Both the position numbers and the translations under genes were made by a program. A DNA stretch of 64,000 nt from an uncultured Pseudomonadales bacterium (lineage in GTDB: Bacteria; Patescibacteriota; Microgenomatia; UBA1400; PJMF01). The notes below the pieces were generated by a model, which saw nothing but the letters and a program-made list of their open reading frames with translations, did not search any database and was not told the origin of the DNA. This document shows positions 1,619 through 63,225 of this stretch, piece by piece (position 1 is the stretch's first letter; every line of letters begins with the position of its first letter). The stretch lies in NCBI GenBank assembly GCA_964521215.1, contig CAZFRD010000003.1:425-64424 (forward strand), read 5' to 3'.

Positions 1619-2602
1619 CTATACGACCTTTAAACAATTATTCTCCGTTTTTTTCCACCACGTCATTTGTCTTTTTGCATACTGGAATTCGTGAAGGGCC
1701 CAAAGTTGTTGACAGTTTTCTGCAGAAATTTCTCCATTTAGATAACTGCGAATTTCTGGCACGCCAAGCGTTGTTAGTACTGGGGCTGATGCTGGTAATT
1801 TAAGTTTGAGTAGATTTTTTACCTCTTGTATTGCGCCGCTGGCAAACCGTTTTTCTACTCGTTGTTTAATTCGCTTTTCTATTAGCTCCAGCGGCGCTGT
1901 GACTAATTCCACGTGATTATCAACTTGGCTCCACAGCATCGGCGAATTGGTTGATTTAGTCAGTGAGCCACTTCCATGTTTTTTTTGCCAAGTTGCCACC
2001 TCAATAGCACGAAGCAACCTTCGAGAATTCTCTCTGTCCGAATCATTCATCTGCTCCAACCGAGCTGAATCGATCTCTGCTAACCATCGTTGTAAATCCG
2101 CTACCGACATGTTTTCCGCCTTGCGTCTCATAGTTAAGTCTTGAGGAATTTGGGGTGTTACGTCATCAGAAAATAAATGTTTGTGATACAGCCCTGTGCC
2201 TCCTACCAGCATTGGTTGACGATTATTCGACCAGCTCCACTGCATAATTTCTCTTGCAAAGTTGACAAAATGAGCGAGAGACCACTCTGCAGTTGGATCG
2301 ATCATCGAAATTCCAAAGATTCGAATAGAGCCGTCTATATTTGTGAAGTAGTTAGGGTTGCTCTGAGGGGTGTCACACTGAGCATGTCGAAGTGTGACAA
2401 CCTCAAACCCCTCCGGCACATCCGCACCCGTCAAAATCTCCAATCCCTTATACACTTGCCTGGAGTCGGCACTGATCACATCCACCCCCGCCACTTTTTT
2501 CTCTCTCACCAATTGGCCAGCAATCGCCAAAGCTCTATCCGTCTTACCACAGGCGGTGGGACCAACAACAGAAATGCAGTGATTCGCTTGATCAATTTTC
2601 AT
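1619..2602 (-). CDS. miaA: tRNA dimethylallyltransferase
   Basis: N-terminal P-loop VVGPTACGKT and overall MiaA-like sequence. Overlaps the downstream NUDIX gene by 4 nt. Contains an in-frame palindromic repeat copy (see the repeat feature at 2367..2404). Confidence 0.85.
   Translation of the reverse strand: MKIDQANHCISVVGPTACGKTDRALAIAGQLVREKKVAGVDVISADSRQVYKGLEILTGADVPEGFEVVTLRHAQCDTPQSNPNYFTNIDGSIRIFGISMIDPTAEWSLAHFVNFAREIMQWSWSNNRQPMLVGGTGLYHKHLFSDDVTPQIPQDLTMRRKAENMSVADLQRWLAEIDSARLEQMNDSDRENSRRLLRAIEVATWQKKHGSGSLTKSTNSPMLWSQVDNHVELVTAPLELIEKRIKQRVEKRFASGAIQEVKNLLKLKLPASAPVLTTLGVPEIRSYLNGEISAENCQQLWALHEFQYAKRQMTWWKKTENNCLKVV
2367..2404. repeat. palindromic repeat unit, in-frame inside miaA
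   Basis: Sequence ggggtGTCACACTGAGCATGTCGAAGTGTGACaacctc. Perfect 8-bp inverted repeat GTCACACT/AGTGTGAC around an 11-nt loop. Same family as the units at 4681-4810 and 54226-54474. Confidence 0.7.
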
Positions 2603-3015
2603 ATCTCAACCACCTGGAATGCCTTTTTTTTCGAGAGCAACATGTCCAAACCAGCTTTGTGTCCCAGTAAAATATCCTCAGGCAAATTTTCGAGTGAAAA
2701 CCATACCCAATTTTCAGACTTTTCAGGTTCAAGATTAGTAATCTGGCCTTTCCACTCAGTACATACAAACACAAACTGCAAGAAAAAGTGGGTTTTTTGC
2801 CACTCTTTAACCAAACCTAAGAATTGAAATTGTACCGGCACCACCCCAACTTCCTCTAAAAGTTCTCGAGTCATACAGTGTTCTAGTATTTCTTGTTCGT
2901 CAACATGTCCTCCGGGTAATCCGTACAGTCCTTCACCGTAGGCATGCTTGCGTTTGGCTAATAATACTTTGTTATCTTTTAGCAATATTACTGGGACTCC
3001 AAGATTTTTTATCAT
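2599..3015 (-). CDS. NUDIX hydrolase
   Basis: Nudix box GGHVDEQEILEHCMTRELLEEVGV (GX5EX7REUXEEXGU) in a 138-aa protein. Confidence 0.8.
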   Translation of the reverse strand: MIKNLGVPVILLKDNKVLLAKRKHAYGEGLYGLPGGHVDEQEILEHCMTRELLEEVGVVPVQFQFLGLVKEWQKTHFFLQFVFVCTEWKGQITNLEPEKSENWVWFSLENLPEDILLGHKAGLDMLLSKKKAFQVVEI

Positions 3016-7131: not shown

Positions 7132-8061
7132 ATGCCAAAAACCAAAAACACATCCACAAATAGTCCCACGCAACCACCATTAATTATTGGCAACACAATT
7201 TTGACCATCACTCTGCCTTGGATTCAAGTTGCGCCGGAGTATCAAAAAGTCATCAAGCGCATGGCTAAACAACTCAACCTCGCAGGCTTTCGTAAGGGTA
7301 TGGTCCCGCCTCATATCGCTGAAGAACAACTCAGGCCAGAGTCAATTGTCGAGTCTGTTTTACAAATATTACTACCCAAAGCCTACCAATATTTGCTAGA
7401 AAAAGAACAGAAACACCCGATTAGTGATCCAGAATTTGATCCCAAAGCAGTCACTAAGGGCTCCGACTGGTTAATAGAGGTACACTTAGCAGAAAAACCA
7501 GTGGTAGACGTGGCTAACTACGTCAAAATCGCCAAGGAGGCAAAAAAAGCTGCGCTGGTGCATCTCAAAGAGGAAGCCAAGCAAAAAGATGCTACCAAAC
7601 AAACCAAAGTTCCTCACGATGCTACTCACCAACAAAAGCACGATGATGACCATATTTTGCAACATATTTTTCAAGATCTAGTGAAAACCTGCAAACCTCA
7701 ATTGCCAGAATTACTCGTCAAACAACAAACTCGACGTGAATTGGAAAGGTTGGTCAAAGAACTCCAATCAATGAAGCTGACACTGGATGATTTTCTCCAA
7801 AGAAACAATCAGACCTTTGAACAATTATCTAGCCACGTAGCTTCTAGAGCGGTGGGGCAATTACAACTCGAGTTTATTCTTCAGGCTATTACTCAAAAAG
7901 CGACCATTACTGTGACGGACTCGGAAATTGACGAACTAATTAAGCTGACTCCAGATGAAAAAACTCGTGAAAACCAACTCAAGGACCCAAATTACCGGGA
8001 CGCGGGCAGAGAACACCTGACGAGAAAGAAATTATTTACTCATTTGCTCGCAGTGGCTTAA
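7132..8061 (+). CDS. tig: trigger factor (short form)
   Basis: N-terminal ribosome-binding signature GFRKGMVPPHIAEEQ. The protein is only 309 aa, so it is truncated relative to the ~430-aa canonical Tig. Confidence 0.6.
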   Translation: MPKTKNTSTNSPTQPPLIIGNTILTITLPWIQVAPEYQKVIKRMAKQLNLAGFRKGMVPPHIAEEQLRPESIVESVLQILLPKAYQYLLEKEQKHPISDPEFDPKAVTKGSDWLIEVHLAEKPVVDVANYVKIAKEAKKAALVHLKEEAKQKDATKQTKVPHDATHQQKHDDDHILQHIFQDLVKTCKPQLPELLVKQQTRRELERLVKELQSMKLTLDDFLQRNNQTFEQLSSHVASRAVGQLQLEFILQAITQKATITVTDSEIDELIKLTPDEKTRENQLKDPNYRDAGREHLTRKKLFTHLLAVA

Positions 8062-8131
8062 ATTGAAAGCCTCAAATTCAGCTTGATTATGAATTACTTG
8101 TGGGTATAATCTGCTTAGTCAAGTTGGGCTG

Positions 8132-8159
8132 TTGACTTTTTGTATTTTAGACCTATAAT
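8132..8159 (+). promoter_or_regulatory. sigma70-like promoter (TTGACT-16-TATAAT)
   Basis: TTGACT at 8132-8137 and TATAAT at 8154-8159, 27 nt upstream of the 8186 start. Confidence 0.35.
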
Positions 8160-8185
8160 TAACTGGTATAAAGTAGACAGAAACT

Positions 8186-8848
8186 ATGCAATCTCAGACA
8201 AACAGAGGAAGTTCCACTGGCAAAAATGCCTCTGTGGCGTCGCAAAATCCATTTGCTCGAGCTCTGGCAGAAGCAGAGAAGCAAGCTTCGGAAAATAATG
8301 GGCAAACCAAAGGCAATCTAGAACCAGGTTTTCCTAGCTTAGATAACTTCGGTAACTTGGGTCAGTTTGGTGGCAATCAGCTCAACCAAGAGCAACTGTT
8401 GCTCGAACAACAGGAAAAAGCCAAAAAAGAGCGACTTCGCCGCCATTTACACGAACAAATCAACCCGGTTGATACCACCAAAGTCTTTGATGCGCGTCAA
8501 AAACAAGTCAAAGAAGAAATTGACAAGTTGCGAATTGAGCTGAAGGCTTTATCCATGGAAGTTGCGGCCTTTCATAAAGAAATTGAAATTACTTTAATGA
8601 CGGAAGTCGGCTCACAGCCAGGAATGGAAGGCAAATATTATCTCAACTTTTTCCAACAATTGCGCGCTTTTATCATGTTACTTCGGCAAAAAATCCGCAG
8701 TGCTCGTACCTGGGCCAGCACGGCCGGTCAAAAGAAGAAAAAGAAAATGGTCGCTGCCGGCATCATGATTGATGGCTCAGCTCACGAACAGACTAAGAGT
8801 GTTTACGACATGATGCACCATGAACGCAGTAATGCCTATGGTGGATAA
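8186..8848 (+). CDS. hypothetical protein (Gln/Glu-rich, coiled-coil region)
   Basis: 220-aa ORF with a promoter-like element upstream. Confidence 0.4.
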   Translation: MQSQTNRGSSTGKNASVASQNPFARALAEAEKQASENNGQTKGNLEPGFPSLDNFGNLGQFGGNQLNQEQLLLEQQEKAKKERLRRHLHEQINPVDTTKVFDARQKQVKEEIDKLRIELKALSMEVAAFHKEIEITLMTEVGSQPGMEGKYYLNFFQQLRAFIMLLRQKIRSARTWASTAGQKKKKKMVAAGIMIDGSAHEQTKSVYDMMHHERSNAYGG

Positions 8849-8907
8849 ACCAATCGTTTCGTGCAGTGAAGTATTTTTTAACAACACGACTACTTAGTTT
8901 TATTTGA

Positions 8908-8972
8908 TAGTTTAGTGTAAAGCATGACTCCAGACGGGGCTATGGTTTACACTAAACTATGTTTTTCTTTTG
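8908..8972. terminator. bidirectional hairpin terminator between convergent genes
   Basis: Perfect 15-bp inverted repeat ATAGTTTAGTGTAAA (8908-8922) / TTTACACTAAACTAT (8946-8960), followed by GTTTTTCTTTTG. Confidence 0.4.
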
Positions 8973-9042
8973 TGTAGTGTGATCTCAAACCTTATGCTTT
9001 AGTGAGTAAATTTAAAAATAGAAAAGTTTGATACAAAAATAA

Positions 9043-9249
9043 CTATATTCTGACAATACTGTCTCTTCTAATCTTTAACTGATCTAGCGAATGGTCAATC
9101 TCTGTTAGTCTCTCTACTAGGGGTTTTAGATTATCAGCTTCAGTTGTCGCATCCCATTCCATTTTGATCCTAGCTTTTTCAGCTTCAAATGCATCAATCT
9201 GATTTTGGAAATCCGCTAACTTTTGCTCAACGGTTTGCCGCTCTGCCAT
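9043..9249 (-). CDS. small coiled-coil protein, hypothetical
   Basis: 68-aa ORF with heptad-like charged pattern. Confidence 0.35.
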   Translation of the reverse strand: MAERQTVEQKLADFQNQIDAFEAEKARIKMEWDATTEADNLKPLVERLTEIDHSLDQLKIRRDSIVRI

Positions 9250-9371: not shown

Positions 9372-9457
9372 AGGTTGCAACTGTTGCCACAAGTTCATGG
9401 CTACTTGCCAGGGCAGATTATACCAAGCATTTCCCCTCTCCACAAGCAAACCAAGAG

Positions 9458-9466
9458 TGATATAAT
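9458..9466 (+). promoter_or_regulatory. extended -10 element (TGaTATAAT) upstream of infC operon
   Basis: TGATATAAT lies ~77 nt upstream of the GTG start of infC. Confidence 0.3.
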
Positions 9467-21328: not shown

Positions 21329-21362
21329 CTCCAGCTGATCTACTCTGATATAATAGATCAAT

Positions 21363-33168: not shown

Positions 33169-36100
33169 GTGTGGAAATATTTTTGGAAATTATTTGTTAT
33201 TGCATCATTATTTTTTGTTCTCGTAGTTTTTAAACCTCTAAATACCGCTGAAGCTTACTGTAATCCAGACCTCTGGCATGATGCAACAAGTTGTCAGTCT
33301 AGTTGCACAAAAACACAATACAACGACTGCGACGTAACCAATACTAGAGTAGTATCATGTACTGGGGGTAGTTGTGCAGATCCGACTGCTACGCCAGGTG
33401 GTAATCCCAATGTTCGCTGTGGCAGTTGTACCTGCCCAGATGGAAGTACTAAAGCAAAGTGGTGTACCCCCGATTGCTCTGCCACTAACGCCTGTTGGTG
33501 TGATCCATGTGGAGGAGGTGGCGGGGGAGGGGGGAATAGTTGCTGTATGTTAGATGAGAATTGTACTGCTAGTAACTCATGTTACAACTGTAGTCCTGGT
33601 AACTGTAGAGGTTTTTGTGACTCCAATAATGAATGTTCGGCAGCGAGCTACGAAGGCGCCTGTACATATCGTTGTATAGCGGATCCCACCTCACCTCCTG
33701 GTTCCACACCCACTCCAACCTTTCCACCGCTTTGTGGCAACCTCAGCGTCGACCCTGGCGAGGCGTGTGATAATTACATTTACAATAGCAATACAGTCCC
33801 TAATGCCTGTCGGCTGAACTGCCAGTGGCCAGTCTGTGGCGATTTTGTAGTAGATAATACAAACGCCACTCACGGGGGGGTCAACGAAGAATGCGATGCC
33901 GGCGCTGGCAACAGCACCACTGGTTACTGTTCCAACAGTTGTTTACAACTACCCGAATATTCAAATTCTTGTAATCTGATAACTATTGGGCCTTATGCTT
34001 ATGATGGCGTGGACTTTACCTACTCGTACCGAGCGCAAAGTAACGCCAATACTCCAGGTAGTTACTCACCATCGCTACAAATGACTCACCTCAGAAACAA
34101 ATTAGGGATAGATCTTACCCCGCCCAATATTATGTATAGCGAAATAATTCCAAGTTGTAGTAATTACTCATGCACTTCCAACCAAACAATGACCATCGAT
34201 GGTGATTACTTGGTAGTGGATGGAGTAGGTCATAGTTTAACAGTAGGTGTCAATGTCTGGTCAACTATTGAGGGTGAGGCACACCAGTGCGAAACAAGCT
34301 GGTATAGCTCCACCTCGCCAGCATGGCCCAACGAAAACTCACTTAATGGCTGTGATAACAACTGCCGAACTACCATACCAATTATTAATAAGGTAGAGGC
34401 TGCCTGTAACAACTTCACTGTTGACGCTAGTACGATCAATGCAAGTAGTAACTTAACCATCACAGGAACAACTACGACTAATTTATCAGTGGGTCAAGTG
34501 GTACTACAGTACCAAATTCTTAAGGAAGATAACTCCACCACCACTTGGGAAGCCGTTCCAGGAGCAGCTTGCACCGCTACTGGCTCAGATTGGACATGTA
34601 CCAATGTTATTCTTCCTGAATTATTAGAAACTGACCAAGAAGTGAGATTTGATTTGATTCCACTAGTTACAGTTGCCTGTTCGAATATTACGCATCATAG
34701 CGATCAAAGTACGACCGACTGCCTAGTAGCGGCTGGTCCAACTACCGCAGTAAGATGTCGATCTTGGGGCTGGGCCGCTGGCTTGCCTCCCAACGACCAT
34801 CCCAACACTTCTTGTAGCAGTAGTTGTTATGTGGCTTTACCCGTCGGTGCTGTGCCTTATACCCCCACACCCACCCCCACAGTTACACTCACCCCCATTC
34901 CAACCAATACTGCCACACCAACGCCCATTGGAGCGCCCACCGCCACGCCCACCCACACACCCACACCCACACCTACGCCCACTTCTTCCGTACCAACGGC
35001 CACACCCACCAATACTCCTGCCGTGGCACCAGCATTCTGGGGTGAATTATTTTACGACTTCAACAACAATGGAGTTTATGAAACTCAATGTGACGTGGGC
35101 CATATCGTCGAAAAAATTGATTATGCCACCTTTGGCTGTACCGGAGCAGGTTGTACCGACTGCTCGCCCAAAGCTGCACTCGCTGCCCTAATTGGACCAC
35201 TCAACCGGTCACTAGAAGGATTTGAATTATTGGTGGAGGGCACCGGTTTCATTTGGCTCCCCAATCCCAAAATCAGACTCGCACCCTACAGTAGTAATCC
35301 GTTTTACTCGTGGAACGTGGCGCAAAATAATTCTTATACCCTGACTTTGACAGATCCTCGTTCCACCGTCCGTAACTGTAGCGTCACTACTGGTAATCCT
35401 CGCAATATCTCGGTGGGCACTTCCAATGTGGGCAATATTAACACCGGTATCATCTGTAGCCCTCCTTCCACACCCACACCAACGCCCACTCCCACAGCCA
35501 CCGTTACACCCACACCCACCGTCACACCCACTTCCACGCCCACACCCACGCCCACGCCTGGTCCCTATTGGCAAATCCAAGGTGGCAATCTCTTTTCTAA
35601 TGGCGATACTACTGTATTATTGCCAGATCTCTCGTCACTCGGCACCTCAATTCATTTAGCCGATAAATATCCAAATTCTGCTCTCAATATTAGCGCTGGT
35701 GCGGCCATTAGCAATGGATTACTATCAATCGGTTCTGGTTCACTTAATGATTTTTCGGCAAATTTTTCGGGTGAAAAAGTTGAAGAAACTAGCAGCTCGA
35801 TCTGTAGTGATTACACTTTTGCCAGTTTTGCGGATAGTTTAGATTTAGCTCATTTAACATCACAAGGGCCTTTATCAGGAACTATGATTGTCCAAGATTT
35901 CGACAATATATATGGTTCAGCTGTCGATCGGGGAGATTACAAAATTTTCTATCGCTCAGATGATCTACGCCTCAATATCGGAGTATTGTGGGAAGTTAAT
36001 GCAGATCCACCAAACAACAACAAACCCACCATCGTAGTGGTTGATGGAGATCTTGAAGTTGCCTCCATCGGAGGTTTGGAACAACTCATTGACCTAAATC

Positions 36101-36471
36101 CAAATACATTTCTTGGCTTTATTGTCTCTGGCGATATCATTTTTGAAAGCTCAGTGGGCAACAACGTTAGTTCTTCAACTATACCTCCAGGAATTCCAGA
36201 CAACGAACTAAGCAATGTAGAGGGCTTATTCTTCTCGACCGGAAAACCAACCGGTGGCGGTAATGTTATCGTCCAATCAGCCACTCTACCCGCAGAGGAT
36301 AAACGCTTCGTGGGTGAGGGCACATTCATTGGCTGTGCTGGTGTAGAGTTACAGCGAGCCCTTCAAATCAATAATAATAAAACTGAGATATTCCGTTTCA
36401 AACCAGACTTACTATTGAACGTACCAACCGACTTAAGAGAGGCACATATATCATGGCAAGAAATCAACTAG
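33169..36471 (+). CDS. 1100-aa cysteine-rich secreted protein with Myxococcus-type Cys-rich repeats, poly-Gly and PT linkers (candidate pilus-associated adhesin)
   Basis: Signal peptide. Two repeats of the form CGxxxVDPGEACD / CGDFVVD...EECDAGAGNS..YCSNSC. A GGGGGGGGNSCC tract. PTPTPT linkers at ~34858-35025 and ~35465-35565. The stop overlaps the start of the pilin gene at 36453. Confidence 0.7.
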   Translation: MWKYFWKLFVIASLFFVLVVFKPLNTAEAYCNPDLWHDATSCQSSCTKTQYNDCDVTNTRVVSCTGGSCADPTATPGGNPNVRCGSCTCPDGSTKAKWCTPDCSATNACWCDPCGGGGGGGGNSCCMLDENCTASNSCYNCSPGNCRGFCDSNNECSAASYEGACTYRCIADPTSPPGSTPTPTFPPLCGNLSVDPGEACDNYIYNSNTVPNACRLNCQWPVCGDFVVDNTNATHGGVNEECDAGAGNSTTGYCSNSCLQLPEYSNSCNLITIGPYAYDGVDFTYSYRAQSNANTPGSYSPSLQMTHLRNKLGIDLTPPNIMYSEIIPSCSNYSCTSNQTMTIDGDYLVVDGVGHSLTVGVNVWSTIEGEAHQCETSWYSSTSPAWPNENSLNGCDNNCRTTIPIINKVEAACNNFTVDASTINASSNLTITGTTTTNLSVGQVVLQYQILKEDNSTTTWEAVPGAACTATGSDWTCTNVILPELLETDQEVRFDLIPLVTVACSNITHHSDQSTTDCLVAAGPTTAVRCRSWGWAAGLPPNDHPNTSCSSSCYVALPVGAVPYTPTPTPTVTLTPIPTNTATPTPIGAPTATPTHTPTPTPTPTSSVPTATPTNTPAVAPAFWGELFYDFNNNGVYETQCDVGHIVEKIDYATFGCTGAGCTDCSPKAALAALIGPLNRSLEGFELLVEGTGFIWLPNPKIRLAPYSSNPFYSWNVAQNNSYTLTLTDPRSTVRNCSVTTGNPRNISVGTSNVGNINTGIICSPPSTPTPTPTPTATVTPTPTVTPTSTPTPTPTPGPYWQIQGGNLFSNGDTTVLLPDLSSLGTSIHLADKYPNSALNISAGAAISNGLLSIGSGSLNDFSANFSGEKVEETSSSICSDYTFASFADSLDLAHLTSQGPLSGTMIVQDFDNIYGSAVDRGDYKIFYRSDDLRLNIGVLWEVNADPPNNNKPTIVVVDGDLEVASIGGLEQLIDLNPNTFLGFIVSGDIIFESSVGNNVSSSTIPPGIPDNELSNVEGLFFSTGKPTGGGNVIVQSATLPAEDKRFVGEGTFIGCAGVELQRALQINNNKTEIFRFKPDLLLNVPTDLREAHISWQEIN

Positions 36472-52299: not shown

Positions 52300-52786
52300 C
52301 CACCCAACAGTATCGGTAAAAAGAATACTTATTGGCGTACTTATTGGATCATTCTTTCTAATCTCTGCAGTTGTGATGTCTTTGTTTTACATCAAGTATG
52401 GTGACAATTCGCCAGAAATTATCAGTGAGTTTGCTAAATTCTCAACTGATTCACTGATTAACCAACTGTTATTATCTATTAACTGCAGGGGTGAAAATCA
52501 AAAAATTACTTATGTAGGATACCCCAAAGAAGCGTATTGCTATGCAACATACTCCGATGGTGGCGAAGTTTGCTCTGACGGTAACCAGTGCGATTCTGGC
52601 ATTTGCATACTTTCTTACGAAGATGATCGAGCCCTGCGTTTCAGTAAACTGACTAATGACTCTTTAACTGGTACTTGTCTGGCTTCAAGACAACGAGAGA
52701 AAGTAAACCTTCCATATAGTGGATGTCCAATGATGTCAATAAACGATGGGAAGGTTGGGGAATTTTCACTTTGTGCGAATAATTGA
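52286..52786 (+). CDS. membrane-anchored Cys-rich hypothetical protein
   Basis: N-terminal TM segment and eight Cys in the extracellular part. Overlaps the gyrA end. Confidence 0.4.
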
Positions 52787-52796
52787 GAATGTTGCT

Positions 52797-52873
52797 TGGT
52801 GGACCGAAGGGGGCTCGAACCCCTGACCTCCTGCATGCCATGCAGGCGCTCTAGCCAACTGAGCTACCGGCCC
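52797..52873 (-). tRNA. tRNA-Ala (GGC)
   Basis: Reverse complement reads GGGCCGG-TAGCTCAGTTGGCTAGAGC-G-CCTGC-ATGGCAT-GCAGG-AGGTC-AGGGG-TTCGAGC-CCCCT-TCGGTCC-A-CCA. The G3:U70 wobble is the Ala identity pair. Confidence 0.85.
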
Positions 52874-53120
52874 GTGTTCCAAGACGGATAGTATATCATT
52901 TATCTCGACTGGTTAAACAAGATTTCAATAATAAATTTGTCTATCCGCTTTGTTATACTGATAACCCCTAAGATATAGTCTTCTAATCAACTTAACTGAG
53001 TTAAACCTAGTGGGAGAGAGTAGTTTTACTATCTTTTTTGTTTGATACAGCAATATTTTTTACAAAATTAGCAAATTAGCAGAGTAGGGGAGTGACTGCT
53101 AATTTCACCAATCTAGAGTA

Positions 53121-54059
53121 CTACTTAAAATCTGAGTGAAATTTGTGATGAGCCTGCTTGAGCTGTGGTCTGGTGACGTGCGTGTAAATTTGTGTCGTAC
53201 CAATATCTTTGTGACCCAACATTTCTTGAACATCACGGAGTGAAGCGCCATTACTCAACAAATCCGTGGCAAATGAATGACGAATACCGTGGGGGGAGAC
53301 TCTAATAGGCAAACGGGCTTTACGACAGTAGGTATCCACCAGGCGCTGAACACTCCGTGCCGTCAAGCGCATCTCTTCTCCGTCGGAAAGAATATCTGGT
53401 TGTTTGCCAGAAAAACGAATAAACACCGGGTCCCAATTATCTCGACGAGTGTTCAGCCAACGCTCCAACCAGCTCTTGGCTCGATCACTCAAGAACACCA
53501 CACGTGGACGCCTTCCCTTACCAATCACCCCAAACTCTTGAGAGGTCATGTTGACTTGATCACGATTGAGGTTGACCAACTCACTTACCCGCAAACCAGT
53601 AGAAAACAGCACTTCCAGTAACGCCTTATCTCTCAAGCCCGATTGTGAGGATAAATCTGGTTGTCCGAGCAAGCGCTCGATACTTTCTATTGGCAAGAAC
53701 TTCATTAGACGAGCTTCTGCCTTGGGTAAATCAATTTTTTCTGGCTGAATCACTGGTACGTCGTTTTTTACCAACCATTTCAGCCAGGATCGTAAACCGA
53801 TGACATAGTAACTTTGAGTCCGTTTCGAGAGGGTTTCGCCTTCATCATCTTCATATCTTGCTAGATAAATGCGATACTTTCTAATAACTTCCTTATCTAT
53901 TTGTCTCACATCGTCAATTTCTAGATCTTTTAGCCAAGTACAAAATCGTCGTAAATATAATGAATAATTGCGAATGGTCAGTCGACTCACGTTGCGTTCA
54001 ATTTCTAAATGTTCTAAATATTGGGTTAAAAGTAAAAATGGTTCAGTCGGAAATGCCAT
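53121..54059 (-). CDS. tyrosine-type site-specific recombinase/integrase (XerC/XerD/phage-integrase family)
   Basis: N-terminal SAM-like domain. Catalytic region HGIRHSFATDLL...LGHKDIGTTQIYTHV with R, H-x-x-R and Y. Confidence 0.85.
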   Translation of the reverse strand: MAFPTEPFLLLTQYLEHLEIERNVSRLTIRNYSLYLRRFCTWLKDLEIDDVRQIDKEVIRKYRIYLARYEDDEGETLSKRTQSYYVIGLRSWLKWLVKNDVPVIQPEKIDLPKAEARLMKFLPIESIERLLGQPDLSSQSGLRDKALLEVLFSTGLRVSELVNLNRDQVNMTSQEFGVIGKGRRPRVVFLSDRAKSWLERWLNTRRDNWDPVFIRFSGKQPDILSDGEEMRLTARSVQRLVDTYCRKARLPIRVSPHGIRHSFATDLLSNGASLRDVQEMLGHKDIGTTQIYTHVTRPQLKQAHHKFHSDFK

Positions 54060-54225
54060 GCTTGAATTACTATATCAGAAATCAGCAACCGGCTTCTAGC
54101 AACGGTTAATTTTGTTTTAGCTTGTCTTATCAACTTATTACCGTTCTCTACATGGTGGATAGGTTCTCTATTGCCCCAAAATCGGCTTTTTACTAGTGTG
54201 GATGACCAGTTAATCATTGTATTTT

Positions 54226-54310
54226 GGGTGTCATGCTGAGCCTGTCGAAGCATGAATAGCCAAACTCAGCATGACACCCAAATTCAGAGTGACATCAGCA
54301 TGACACCAGC
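54226..54310. repeat. composite palindromic repeat (unit + inverse half + partial unit)
   Basis: GGGTGTCATGCTGAGCCTGTCGAAGCATGA-atagccaaa-CTCAGCATGACACCC. Outer 15-bp perfect inverted repeat. Followed by agagtgacatcagcatgacacc. Confidence 0.7.
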
Positions 54311-54344
54311 CCAGCCTCTGATTGTATATCTGGTTGTACCTCAA

Positions 54345-54380
54345 GTTGTCACACTGAACCTGTCGAAGTGTGACAACGAG
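54345..54380. repeat. palindromic repeat unit
   Basis: aGTTGTCACACTGAACCTGTCGAAGTGTGACAACgag, a 10-bp perfect inverted repeat. Confidence 0.7.
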
Positions 54381-54440
54381 CATAGAGACAGGCGAGCAAT
54401 GTCTGCCTTAGTGAACTCAAAGTAGCGCCTGGATGAACTA

Positions 54441-54474
54441 AATGTCATGCTGAATTTATCGAAGCAGACATTAC
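54441..54474. repeat. degenerate palindromic repeat unit
   Basis: aaTGTCATGCTGAATTTATCGAAGCAGACAttac. Confidence 0.5.
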
Positions 54475-54806
54475 TAAAGCCAACCATATTTTTTTAGATA
54501 CAATGTCGTAAAAGTAATATTGTGCGACATAATAGATTTGTGAAGATTGACCAATTGTGGTGGGGGAAGTAGTCCCCCTCTAACTTGCTTAAACAAGAAA
54601 TTATTTGTTTGCTTAAATTCATCTCTGATGCTAGTTAAACCCCACCCCAAGGGTACCTTCAAATATCGATAAAAAGATGATCTTCGTATGGTCTCCAGTA
54701 TGGGTTCGGGTTATTTATTCCCGCATCACTACCACACAGCGATTTACACACACAATTTACTCGAGTTATAGTCTTATAATAATTAAGTTTTCCACATTCT
54801 ACTCAG

Positions 54807-54845
54807 TATCAAACTATATCAGTTTACGTATATCAAACTATATCA
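54807..54845. repeat. 15-nt perfect direct repeat x2 (TATCAAACTATATCA)
   Basis: Copies at 54807-54821 and 54831-54845 within the ORF-free AT-rich tract. Confidence 0.6.
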
Positions 54846-55090
54846 ACCTCCCCCGCCCCGCCTGGTTTATTCATTTATCTCCCCTACTTTATTGAAAAAT
54901 AATCATCATTTATTTGTATTTTCAGTTAATTTCGTCTTTTCTGGTTAATATTGCTCATCAAATATAAAACTTGATTTTGCTTTTTTAGATAAATAATTCA
55001 TTTTATTTAATTTAAACCAGATCATAACCACCCACTCTCTCCTACTCCTTTATTTTTAAAAGGATTGATGCATCAATCTAATAGCCCACT

Positions 55091-55858
55091 TTATTTACCT
55101 GGGAAAAGTAATAAGAATAGAATCAGAGAAACCACTGTCACTAGAGAATATTCTCGAATGGTTTTTAAAAATAGTCGACCTTTGAGATAACTTTGAAACA
55201 CACCTAAGCCGATGTACATGACAGACATGATTAGTAGACCGATCGCCCAGACGGCATAGGGAATAAATGAGAGGCCGATCGCCAACTCAAACACAGCCAG
55301 GGTAAGCAGTCCAGTTAAAATCCAGTCTGTCTGGTCGAAAGTATTTCTCAGTTGGACGCTCCAAATAGACATAGCAATCAGAGGCAAGTGAATCATGGCT
55401 ACCAATCCAGCTGCCACGACAAAAGGCAAATTAAGGGTAAAAATCGTATTAGTGACTAAGAACGAAATTAATAAGCTGAAAAACAAAGCAATTGTTTGAG
55501 CGGCATAAAGTAGTTGGATGGTTCTGCCTTTGGCCACGGAGAAGATATTGCCCGTTAGCAAAAGCGCATACATGCCAACCCCAAACAAAACCATGAAAAG
55601 CACTCTTTTGGGCGTACTAGCGGGCAAGACAAAATAAAAACTAGCGATAGCCAGCGCATACAGCGTGGGCAATGGCAAAATAGTGAAATATTCATTTTTT
55701 TGCAAATCTTCTGCCAATGCCCACGCTGACAATCCGTAGGTCAGCAGGCCAAAAGCGAAAAGCGACCAAATTCTCCAACCGGCAGGAATTAGCAACACTC
55801 CAAGTAAGGCAAACCCCAACACTAATGAGGTAATGATAAATTTTTCTCTCCGTCTCAT
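55091..55858 (-). CDS. polytopic membrane protein, hypothetical
   Basis: About 8 hydrophobic segments. Overlaps the yebC-like gene by 4 nt. Confidence 0.45.
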   Translation of the reverse strand: MRRREKFIITSLVLGFALLGVLLIPAGWRIWSLFAFGLLTYGLSAWALAEDLQKNEYFTILPLPTLYALAIASFYFVLPASTPKRVLFMVLFGVGMYALLLTGNIFSVAKGRTIQLLYAAQTIALFFSLLISFLVTNTIFTLNLPFVVAAGLVAMIHLPLIAMSIWSVQLRNTFDQTDWILTGLLTLAVFELAIGLSFIPYAVWAIGLLIMSVMYIGLGVFQSYLKGRLFLKTIREYSLVTVVSLILFLLLFPGK

Positions 55859-56421
55859 GGTTGTGACTCTAATTCTAATTTAGCTGAAGTATATACATCC
55901 TCAACATCCTCATGCTCCAACAAAGTCTCAATCAAGATCTGGACAGACCCAAGCTGATCTGGTGTTAGTTCTAATGGTAGAGTGGCTCGAAACTCCGCTC
56001 CATCAGTACGCTCAAATAAATGACGGGCTGATCCAGGTCCTGCAATCGCCCCACCGTGGCGGGAAAAAATAAACTTCATTTCCGAACTAGAACGATTGGG
56101 ATTATCGGTCACGGCTTGGACTAAGTAAGCCTCTCCAAATGGTCCAAACGCTTCGTAGAGTACTTCTTGGATCGCTGCGCCGGTGGCGGATTTGCCCAAA
56201 CCTTTATCGATCGCTTTTTGGATTTTTTCTCTGGGCATGTTTGCCAACCGAGCTTTGTCGAGAAACGTACGCAGAGTGGGGTTGAACTGGGGATCGCCCG
56301 ATCCCCCTTCCTTCACCGCTTTGCGAATGTGCTTAGCCAAATCACCGAAAACTTTACTTCTTTGGCTATCCACTGCGCCCTTGCGATTTTTGATATTATG
56401 CCATTTGCTATGTCCGGCCAT
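55855..56421 (-). CDS. YebC/PmpR family transcriptional regulator
   Basis: MAGHSKWHNIKNRKGAVDSQRSKVF N-terminus typical of YebC. Confidence 0.85.
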   Translation of the reverse strand: MAGHSKWHNIKNRKGAVDSQRSKVFGDLAKHIRKAVKEGGSGDPQFNPTLRTFLDKARLANMPREKIQKAIDKGLGKSATGAAIQEVLYEAFGPFGEAYLVQAVTDNPNRSSSEMKFIFSRHGGAIAGPGSARHLFERTDGAEFRATLPLELTPDQLGSVQILIETLLEHEDVEDVYTSAKLELESQP

Positions 56422-56543
56422 AAATCTTTCCTCTTGGTAGTATATCTACGAATTGTACACCATTCGGTAACTGTTGGTTGACATTTAGGACTATCGTCGG
56501 TATCCTCTGCAGAACGTTTTTAGTGTAAAAAAAGCGAAATTCT

Positions 56544-63196: not shown

Positions 63197-63225
63197 AAGG
63201 GTTCATTATAGCAAAGAAAAATTTA

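Follow-up and report, generated by a model that had tools for sequence, protein, structure and literature searches.

A 64-kb stretch of DNA from a bacterium of the Patescibacteria, or candidate phyla radiation (CPR), was analysed here (64,000 nt, hereafter the window). It carries a gene for a XerC/D-like tyrosine recombinase (xer) and, upstream of it, a large gap devoid of credible open reading frames (ORFs), in which a 28-bp near-palindrome stands out (Table 1). This 28-mer is likely to be the Xer target site, dif, and the gap as a whole would represent the cis-acting region of Xer, with dif, the xer promoter and further conserved elements. An earlier note on this DNA had proposed that recombinase and gap might be a decayed island, an integron-like platform, or the recombinase's own regulatory and target region. 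The third proposal proved essentially right, with a probable dif, an xer promoter and conserved cis-elements in the gap, while the other two are refuted by the evidence given below. Both the dif-like site and a conserved DnaA-type box upstream of it had been overlooked.

The candidate dif consists of two 11-bp inverted arms, symmetric in nine of 11 positions, around a 6-bp centre. It is unique in the window and forms the strongest invariant island in an alignment of the gap with three relatives, in surroundings that are diverged and rich in insertions and deletions. The inner positions, CGCA.AA-N6-TT.T, are shared with E. coli dif. An alignment-based metagenome scan extended the comparison by 80 further xer loci (53–73% identity). 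When up to seven mismatches are allowed, 52 of 90 loci contain the motif, and in each of them it precedes xer and has the same orientation as the gene. Where at least 2 kb of upstream sequence are available, the site lies within 3 kb upstream in 37 of 45 loci, or in 38 of 45 when a variant in locus L052 is counted. No locus carries the site downstream of xer, and a position-weight-matrix scan of 54 loci revealed no second or degenerate copy. The profile over 54 non-redundant sites reads GTCGCACAAT-NNNN-CTTTTRCGAC, with about 2 bits per arm position, and variation among these sites is limited to the four central and the outermost bases. A fixed difference between the arms (CACAA versus the complement of TTTTR) renders the orientation of the site unambiguous (about 45 versus about 15 bits). 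In the L052 variant, ACGTCGTGGAA-TGTAGG-TTTCACGACGT (positions 1115–1142 of that locus, 1.9 kb upstream of xer), both arms are altered together, suggestive of a site that has co-evolved in a single lineage.

Inverted repeats upstream of genes can have other roles, and the 28-mer might be read as an operator, or as a termination hairpin for the transcript of xer or a neighbour, rather than as a recombination site; it lies in a region that is probably transcribed, and it does not coincide with a GC-skew switch. However, a variable, asymmetric centre between invariant arms in an 11-6-11 arrangement is the signature of a tyrosine-recombinase core. Moreover, the distance between site and xer ranges from 45 to 2850 nt, with genes in between in places, some of them on the opposite strand, and the site recurs in inovirus-like genomes that lack an integrase, as well as in a primase-helicase element. 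Strict intrinsic terminators are not enriched at the site either, as they accompany it in five to six of 54 loci compared to a background of 7%. A role confined to transcriptional control or termination appears very unlikely.

The presumed partner of the site is a XerC/D-like tyrosine recombinase. It matches the Pfam domains Phage_integrase (PF00589, 9.6e-39) and SAM-like N-terminal (PF02899, 1.9e-13), and the catalytic residues R157, K181, H257, R260, H283 and Y292 are all present and fall in columns that are invariant in 29 homologs. XerC and XerD are the top-scoring NCBIfam families (245 bits, cutoff 335, and 244 bits, cutoff 330), followed by XerA (197 bits, cutoff 220), and the PRK00283 model reaches 244 bits (cutoff 279), whereas the XerS model yields 122 bits (cutoff 267). 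Since Xer models score best and yet all remain below their cutoffs, the protein seems to belong to a distinct Xer-like subfamily. Its nearest solved structure is that of E. coli XerD (1A0P), with XerA structures next among the PDB matches. A protein search returned at least 8000 homologs, the best 120 of which share 69–94% identity. Where the source is named, it is mostly Patescibacteria or Woesebacteria, and several homologs are encoded on contigs of 0.9–1.4 Mb, which is whole-genome size for Patescibacteria (CPR); within the Patescibacteria, identity of the recombinase ranges from 53 to 95%. The number of homologs, their identity and their occurrence on genome-size contigs fit a core housekeeping gene better than the integrase of a mobile element. 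The recombinase is the housekeeping Xer of the cell and not a phage or island integrase.

The gene order around xer leads to the same conclusion. Genes for TGT, LytR_C, TPR, YebC and DUF5656 proteins precede the gap, which is followed by xer and then, on the other strand, by gyrA, a phosphatase gene, gyrB and holB; this order is held on contigs with recombinases of 94%, 84% and about 70% identity, and the layout is common across Patescibacteria. As stated in the earlier note, the recombinase gene sits on the 5' side of tRNA-Ala, i.e., upstream of it on the same strand, and no duplicated tRNA 3' end was found, with no repeat within three mismatches in the 64 kb. A remnant of a tRNA-associated prophage or island, with the recombinase as integrase and the gap as a decayed attachment and regulatory region, would account for a tyrosine recombinase beside a tRNA and for a large AT-poor/AT-rich non-coding tract with repeats. 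However, recombinase, gap and flanks are syntenic in every relative examined, the recombinase is Xer-like and among the more conserved proteins of the region, there is neither an attachment-type repeat nor a phage gene nearby in the window, and the tRNA has a promoter-like element of its own and is found downstream of xer in related loci. Among the loci scanned with Rfam, five have a tRNA after xer (L005, L014, L016, L018, L021), and tRNA-Ala is a syntenic neighbour of xer rather than an integration target. The integron-like platform fares no better: the two integron-integrase models give 103 and 54 bits (cutoffs 265 and 435) and cover the C-terminal motif only, and no cassette array is present. 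Both readings fail because synteny is conserved in the relatives, and an island remnant in particular is extremely improbable.

A dif linked to its recombinase gene has been described as a hallmark of XerS/difSL and XerH/difH, which are single-recombinase systems (PMC5357621). The locus resembles these gene-linked modules, but its protein is XerC/D/XerA-like and its site a canonical 28-mer. As in XerS/difSL of streptococci and lactococci, the site lies next to the recombinase gene and forms one module with it (PMC5357621). However, XerS is longer, at about 356 aa compared to 312 aa here, and difSL has 31 bp and a centre of 11 bp, compared to a 28-mer with a 6-bp centre; difSL is also immediately adjacent to its gene, whereas the distance here is 0.05–2.8 kb. 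XerH/difH of Helicobacter and Campylobacter likewise involves one recombinase, as presumed for the present locus, and a dif near its gene (PMC5357621). The arms are near-palindromic in both cases, and the small conserved asymmetry could set the order of strand exchange, but XerH is longer (354–362 aa, as opposed to 312 aa) and constitutes a distinct branch. To our knowledge, no conserved cluster of promoter and DnaA box has been reported for difH. In archaea, XerA is a single recombinase that acts on a 28-bp site and is reported to be FtsK-independent (PMC5357621). Archaeal XerA/dif and the present system have in common a XerC/D-like protein of about 280–320 aa and a conserved 28-bp site, and XerA is among the PDB matches, although the score against the XerA model stays below cutoff and the lineage here is bacterial. 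We know of no report of linkage between site and gene as a feature of XerA systems. Canonical XerCD/dif of E. coli and B. subtilis provides the closest models and structure, the 11-6-11 architecture and the inner arm bases. The arms of canonical dif, however, differ clearly and serve two paralogs, and the site coincides with a skew switch and is unlinked to xerC and xerD; in the present site, the arms are identical in 9–10 of 11 positions, the recombinase gene is linked and the skew does not switch. The locus is a phylum-wide addition to the gene-linked Xer/dif modules, with a conserved partner cluster upstream.

Because the two arms are nearly identical (9–10 of 11), a single recombinase would be expected to serve both. 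Xer, probably as a homotetramer in view of this near-identity, would carry out a crossover between sister chromosomes at dif, by which chromosome dimers would be resolved. About 300 nt upstream of dif, two putative extended -10 elements and a DnaA-box consensus, both conserved phylum-wide, would also belong to the cis-acting region, and phages without an integrase that carry the same site may use the host Xer for integration at dif. No ftsK was seen among those window proteins that were scanned.

Such phages are indicated by an exact-pattern scan of IMG/VR, which detected the site in 33 viral contigs (L097–L129). One inovirus-like group accounts for 18 of them (30–42% GC; 4–7 kb where complete): a Zot-like assembly ATPase is encoded in 18 of 18 and a rolling-circle Rep of G2P type in 10 of 18, and a search limited to Xer-like tyrosine recombinases found none in this group. 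When the window Xer was used in tblastn, L098 alone gave a match (24% identity), and this contig falls outside the inovirus-like group. A Zot-like ATPase together with such a Rep is characteristic of filamentous phages. Filamentous phages with a dif-like site and without an integrase are how integrative mobile elements exploiting Xer (IMEX), such as CTXphi and VGJphi, are recognised. Since the 18 contigs show the site but no Xer-like recombinase, they are candidates for phages of this host-Xer-exploiting type, and their integration at dif would presumably rely on the Xer of the host. A Zot-like ATPase, a rolling-circle Rep, a dif-type site and the lack of a detected Xer-like recombinase are likenesses to CTXphi, VGJphi and TLCphi; the difference is that neither a prophage flanked by two sites nor phage genes were found in the chromosomal loci, which cover about 6–20 kb around xer per genome. 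An ORF of about 290–315 aa lies beside the dif-like site in 16 of the 18 contigs, L103 and L106 being without a match. It has no Pfam or PHROG match (e.g., L099 3858–4736, L113 1–945, L105 1–945) and could encode a replication or Xer-activation factor. The genes of a further contig, L115, include those for a primase-helicase (Toprim/AAA_25), a helicase and a nuclease of the PD-(D/E)XK type, and its site is intergenic; at 8517–8582, the dif-like site is abutted by TGTGGAAA and two TGTGGATAAC boxes. The arrangement recalls plasmids that combine a replication origin with a site for multimer resolution.

Several observations weigh against the assignment of the 28-mer as dif and of the recombinase as the sole Xer of the cell. 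The site is missing within 3 kb in seven to eight of the 45 informative loci, the recombinase falls short of the NCBIfam equivalog cutoffs for both XerC and XerD, the CPR host of the inovirus contigs is assigned from site identity alone, and no specific paper or experiment on Xer or dif in CPR was found in the literature searched. No second tyrosine recombinase was found in the window or in the 96 chromosomal loci covered. The most conspicuous of these points concerns replication. A classical dif sits at the sign switch of the GC skew, at the terminus, whereas the sign of the skew is the same on both sides of the present site, which divides the window into parts of 54 kb and 9.5 kb: plus-strand skew is negative in 27 of 32 two-kb segments, on both sides, skew at 4-fold sites by gene strand amounts to about -0.10 and -0.06 on the two sides, and cumulative skew does not reveal a sign switch either. 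Three loci of 21 kb, from genomes of 1.1–1.4 Mb, likewise have no lasting switch, but a local dip over gyrA and gyrB only. Contigs retrieved with the proteins at the window ends measured only 7–13 kb. Over 31 loci, the mean skew is +0.11 to the left of the locus and +0.02 to its right, values that are confounded by gene strand, and the left-hand skew is positive in 29 of 31. Within the 10–50 kb covered around the site, there is no support for a terminal position of dif, which means either that the skew switch is located far from it or that skew is not a reliable indicator in this case. A dif away from the skew switch has been reported in some FtsK-independent archaeal systems.

The part of the gap upstream of dif contains a second conserved feature. 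The perfect 15-nt direct repeat described in the earlier note (TATCAAACTATATCA, at 54807 and 54831) is indeed present, and its minus-strand form, TGATATAGTTTGATA, is kept with 0–2 mismatches and in the same orientation 150–900 nt upstream of dif in most loci, reaching lineages with about 55% Xer identity. Each copy holds the extended -10 element TGATATAGT, which also precedes xer itself. Matches to TGNTA[TA]A[AG]T are concentrated between genes (eight of 17 in the window, in the intergenic 8% of sequence), and extended -10 elements are found 9–10 nt before a start codon at 21346, 63205 and 54069–54077. Since the TGNTATA[AG]T form is mainly intergenic and stands 9–10 nt before three start codons, that of xer included, the direct repeat can be read as two tandem extended -10 promoters. 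The DnaA-type box follows 8–60 nt downstream of TGATATAGTTTGATA. About 40 of 46 non-redundant loci have it as one copy, in xer orientation, at a distance of 150–850 nt from dif on the upstream side. Many relatives carry TGTGGATAACTT instead, which holds the perfect DnaA-box consensus TTATCCACA. In many lineages, TTTTCAC[AG], a match to the relaxed box TTWTNCACA, is found near the box in one to three copies, spaced by about 22 bp as read by eye. CCTATA[AG]T, TTATAGGAC or ATTATAGGAC motifs occur in many lineages as well, and the motifs of the cluster are sharply enriched 200–1000 nt upstream of dif. On the plus strand, a promoter-like site faces the box and overlaps a conserved minus-strand TTATA[AG]GAC. 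Most likely, the cluster would act as a DnaA-sensitive promoter region, with transcription directed at dif or passing across it and, for many lineages, continuing into xer, but any particular role of the cluster is much less certain than the identity of the 28-mer as Xer target. Two further DnaA-box-like motifs pointed out in the earlier note, TGTGGATGA (54197) and GGTGGATAG (54154), are present in the window but are not kept in relatives, and GGTGGATAG has two mismatches to the consensus.

Close to xer, the block TTTCTGATATAGT around the proximal promoter is kept in L001. Because its extended -10 element is only 9 nt from the ATG, the sequence suggests that the xer mRNA is leaderless. Intergenic matches to TGNTATA[ACG]T in the window are found at 21346–21354 (plus), 63205–63213 (minus), 54069–54077 (minus), 9417–9425 (minus), 9458–9466 (plus) and 52890–52898 (minus), and the spacing of such elements to start codons suggests that leaderless mRNAs may be frequent in this genome.

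Promoters that point into an ORF-free region raise the possibility that the gap is mainly an undescribed non-coding RNA (ncRNA), which would be transcribed from the tandem TGATATAGT promoters and start near the box GUGGAUAACUU, with dif beside or inside it. The promoter elements are conserved, correctly oriented and strong, no ORF follows for more than 750 nt, the part of the gap left of dif always measures 265–950 nt in otherwise compact genomes, and on the top strand the roughly 600 nt that lead to dif are rich in purines. Conserved synteny together with a recognisable ncRNA in the gap had been named in the earlier note as refuting its proposal; synteny is conserved, whereas no Rfam family is found in the gap of the window or of 19 loci, where the gathering score is reached by tRNAs only. 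A sensitive Rfam scan of 52600–55300 gives sub-threshold miRNA hairpins only, and ARAGORN detects no tmRNA. Furthermore, the window segment folds like shuffled sequence (z = -0.63), the region from box to dif is very variable in length and sequence, with no common fold among 12 short representatives, and there is no enriched terminator. A predominantly ncRNA-encoding gap is conceivable but doubtful, and it would be compatible with a dif at the 28-mer.

The cluster of promoters, DnaA box and AT-rich sequence could also be an oriC-type origin, or a DnaA titration site of the datA/DARS kind, beside dif. The perfect DnaA-box consensus is kept across the phylum, the additional TTTTCAC[AG] copies accompany it in many lineages, an AT-rich block and a GC cluster adjoin the box in the window, and the three boxes that abut the dif-like site of L115 recall plasmid regions in which an origin adjoins a resolution site. 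However, there is only one strong box per locus, no DnaA-trio pattern follows the box when the sequence is read directly, neither dnaA nor dnaN lies within 10 kb on either side, and the positive skew left of the locus is the reverse of that at an origin, with no sign switch in the window. An origin or titration site is unlikely. With regard to architecture, cer/psi and datA/DARS provide partial parallels, namely a conserved region on one side of an Xer core and a high-affinity DnaA box outside oriC, respectively; the accessory arms of cer/psi, however, bind PepA plus ArgR or ArcA and keep a constant distance of about 180 bp, whereas the distance here varies between 150 and 850 nt and the motif matches DnaA. 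We know of no link between DnaA boxes and dif.

Another possible source of the cluster is the phages themselves, of which it might be a relic or a non-autonomous satellite; this would account for its constant association with dif. IMEX elements always insert at dif, and in some of the inovirus-like contigs the box or the 15-mer is found 200–270 nt from the site. In these viral contigs, however, the orientation of the box is inverted relative to the site, and the AT-rich inovirus group has no DnaA-type box. In the chromosomes, no second or degenerate dif flanks the cluster in the 54 loci, and the cluster is present in nearly all lineages on the same side and in the same orientation, without remnants of phage genes. 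A phage origin of the cluster is quite improbable.

A more far-reaching suggestion is that the DUF5656 gene, the DnaA-box/promoter cluster, dif and xer together form a composite chromosome-maintenance locus, in which a DnaA-responsive element would be functionally coupled to a gene-linked, single-recombinase dif away from the skew-defined terminus. We regard this as rather unlikely. If true, it would be the replication initiator or the passage of transcription across dif, rather than FtsK and its orienting sequences (KOPS), to which dimer resolution or its timing is linked, and the inoviruses and the primase-helicase element would copy site and box to exploit this arrangement. Irrespective of this, a suspected mobile element turns out to be ordinary core-genome architecture, and what goes beyond routine is that a promoter/DnaA-box cluster is conserved, that the skew context is not that of a terminus and that inovirus-like elements have a matching site. 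CPR bacteria make up a large share of bacterial diversity, and the maintenance and segregation of their chromosomes of about 1 Mb are barely known; a one-protein Xer system is predicted for them here. The dif consensus could serve as a landmark by which CPR genome sequences are curated and oriented, and as a simple route to the CPR hosts and integration sites of integrase-less filamentous phages. The questions raised are why a DnaA-box consensus and tandem promoters are kept next to dif, and why the locus lies off the skew switch.

Table 1. Features of the xer/dif region of the window (positions are those of the window).
Feature	Position	Strand	Remarks
tRNA-Ala(GGC)	52797–52873	minus	ARAGORN; Rfam 61 bits
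Extended -10-like element TGATATACT	52890–52898	minus	16 nt upstream of the tRNA-Ala 5' end
xer, tyrosine recombinase	53121–54059	minus	312 aa; same strand as, and upstream of, tRNA-Ala
ORF-free gap	54060–55090		1031 nt
Proximal xer promoter, extended -10 TGATATAGT	54069–54077	minus	9 nt before ATG
Clade-specific conserved block GTAAAAAGCCGATTTTGG	54176–54193	minus	150–380 nt downstream of dif in about 20 closer-clade loci
Three related hairpins, core CTGA[GA]CCTGTCGAAG	54223–54475		
Candidate dif, ATGTCGCACAA-TATTAC-TTTTACGACAT	54503–54530	minus	28-bp near-palindrome
Short G/C hairpin GGGGGACTACTTCCCCC	54562–54578	minus	about 30 nt upstream of dif; kept in L001 and L009
Opposite-strand promoter-like site, TTTACA-18 nt-TATAGT, then TATAAT	54743–54780	plus	10/12 consensus matches
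DnaA-box-type element TGTGGAAAACTT	54785–54796	minus	form TGTGGA[TA]AACTT
Two copies of TGATATAGTTTGATA (15-nt direct repeat)	54807–54845	minus	each holds TGATATAGT, pointing toward dif and xer
G/C cluster, CCAGGCGGGGCGGGGGAGG on the minus strand	54847–54865		81% GC; purine-rich block abutting the promoter repeats
AT-rich spacer	54866–55090		26% GC; after the DUF5656 gene
Palindrome ATTGATGCATCAAT, also given as ATTGATNNATCAAT, after DUF5656	55064–55077		kept in close relatives only
DUF5656-family polytopic membrane protein	55091–55858	minus	255 aa; left neighbour of the gap
Short YebC/PmpR-family protein	55855–56421	minus	188 aa; 4-nt overlap with the DUF5656 gene

The genome is tightly packed, as described in the earlier note, with a non-coding share of 8% of the window and a median intergenic distance of about 20 nt. 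The gap upstream of xer is the largest of the window, the second largest measuring 446 nt, and it holds only ORFs of 41–75 aa, which are without Pfam support. Coding content was considered and rejected: in the aligned relatives, conservation takes the form of short islands split by insertions and deletions and not of a reading-frame pattern. The description of the gap as very AT-rich applies to the spacer after the DUF5656 gene but not to the whole, which has 37% GC compared to 44% for the window and includes a hairpin block of 46% GC. Purine-rich blocks like the one abutting the promoter repeats are found ahead of TGATATAGT in most loci. When 54 loci are aligned on dif (equivalent to about 54300–55150 in the window), the xer strand contains 52–57% purine over about 600 nt before dif, and the purine content falls to 35–43% at +50 to +200 past dif, a sharp local switch centred on the site. 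In L011–L021, purine/pyrimidine hairpins are found that are analogous to GGGGGACTACTTCCCCC.

The array of hairpin repeats, which had already been recognised in the earlier note, comprises three related hairpins. It is missing from the homologous gap of L001, L005 and L006, and in the sensitive Rfam scan the hairpins give only sub-threshold, miRNA-like matches, as expected of any long hairpin. A fourth hairpin core, CTGAGCATGTCGAAG, lies elsewhere in the window, at 2378–2392 (plus), inside the overlapping opposite ORFs 1619–2602 (minus) and 2177–2827 (plus). The array is a recent, lineage-specific insertion of a dispersed repeat and does not belong to the conserved module.

The length of the gap varies between lineages, from 1.0–1.3 kb in close relatives to 1.9 kb in L095 and 2.3 kb in L093, and in L091 it is broken by an extra ORF of 245 aa and one of 158 aa. 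The assignment of the left neighbour to DUF5656 derives from PF18900, recorded on its homologs in L091 and L093; of 20 left-neighbour ORFs, 14 match PF18900 and all 20 align. A DUF5656 (PF18900) protein is the left neighbour of the dif gap across lineages with 55–95% Xer identity, and a functional tie of this protein to Xer/dif is possible. The adjacent YebC/PmpR protein is unusually short, with 185–197 aa in the window, L001, L005, L091, L093 and L095, and the short form occurs in all relatives. It matches profile positions 1–137 of 245, after which only a short C-terminal segment follows, the middle domain being mostly missing. In L130, a close relative of the window with an identical UppS protein, an extra ORF of 395 aa (7907–9094) is located between the TPR gene and yebC, where the window has a spacer of 122 nt (56422–56543). 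Elsewhere in the window, the 1100-aa ORF at 33169–36471 (plus) has no Pfam match at E <= 1e-5.

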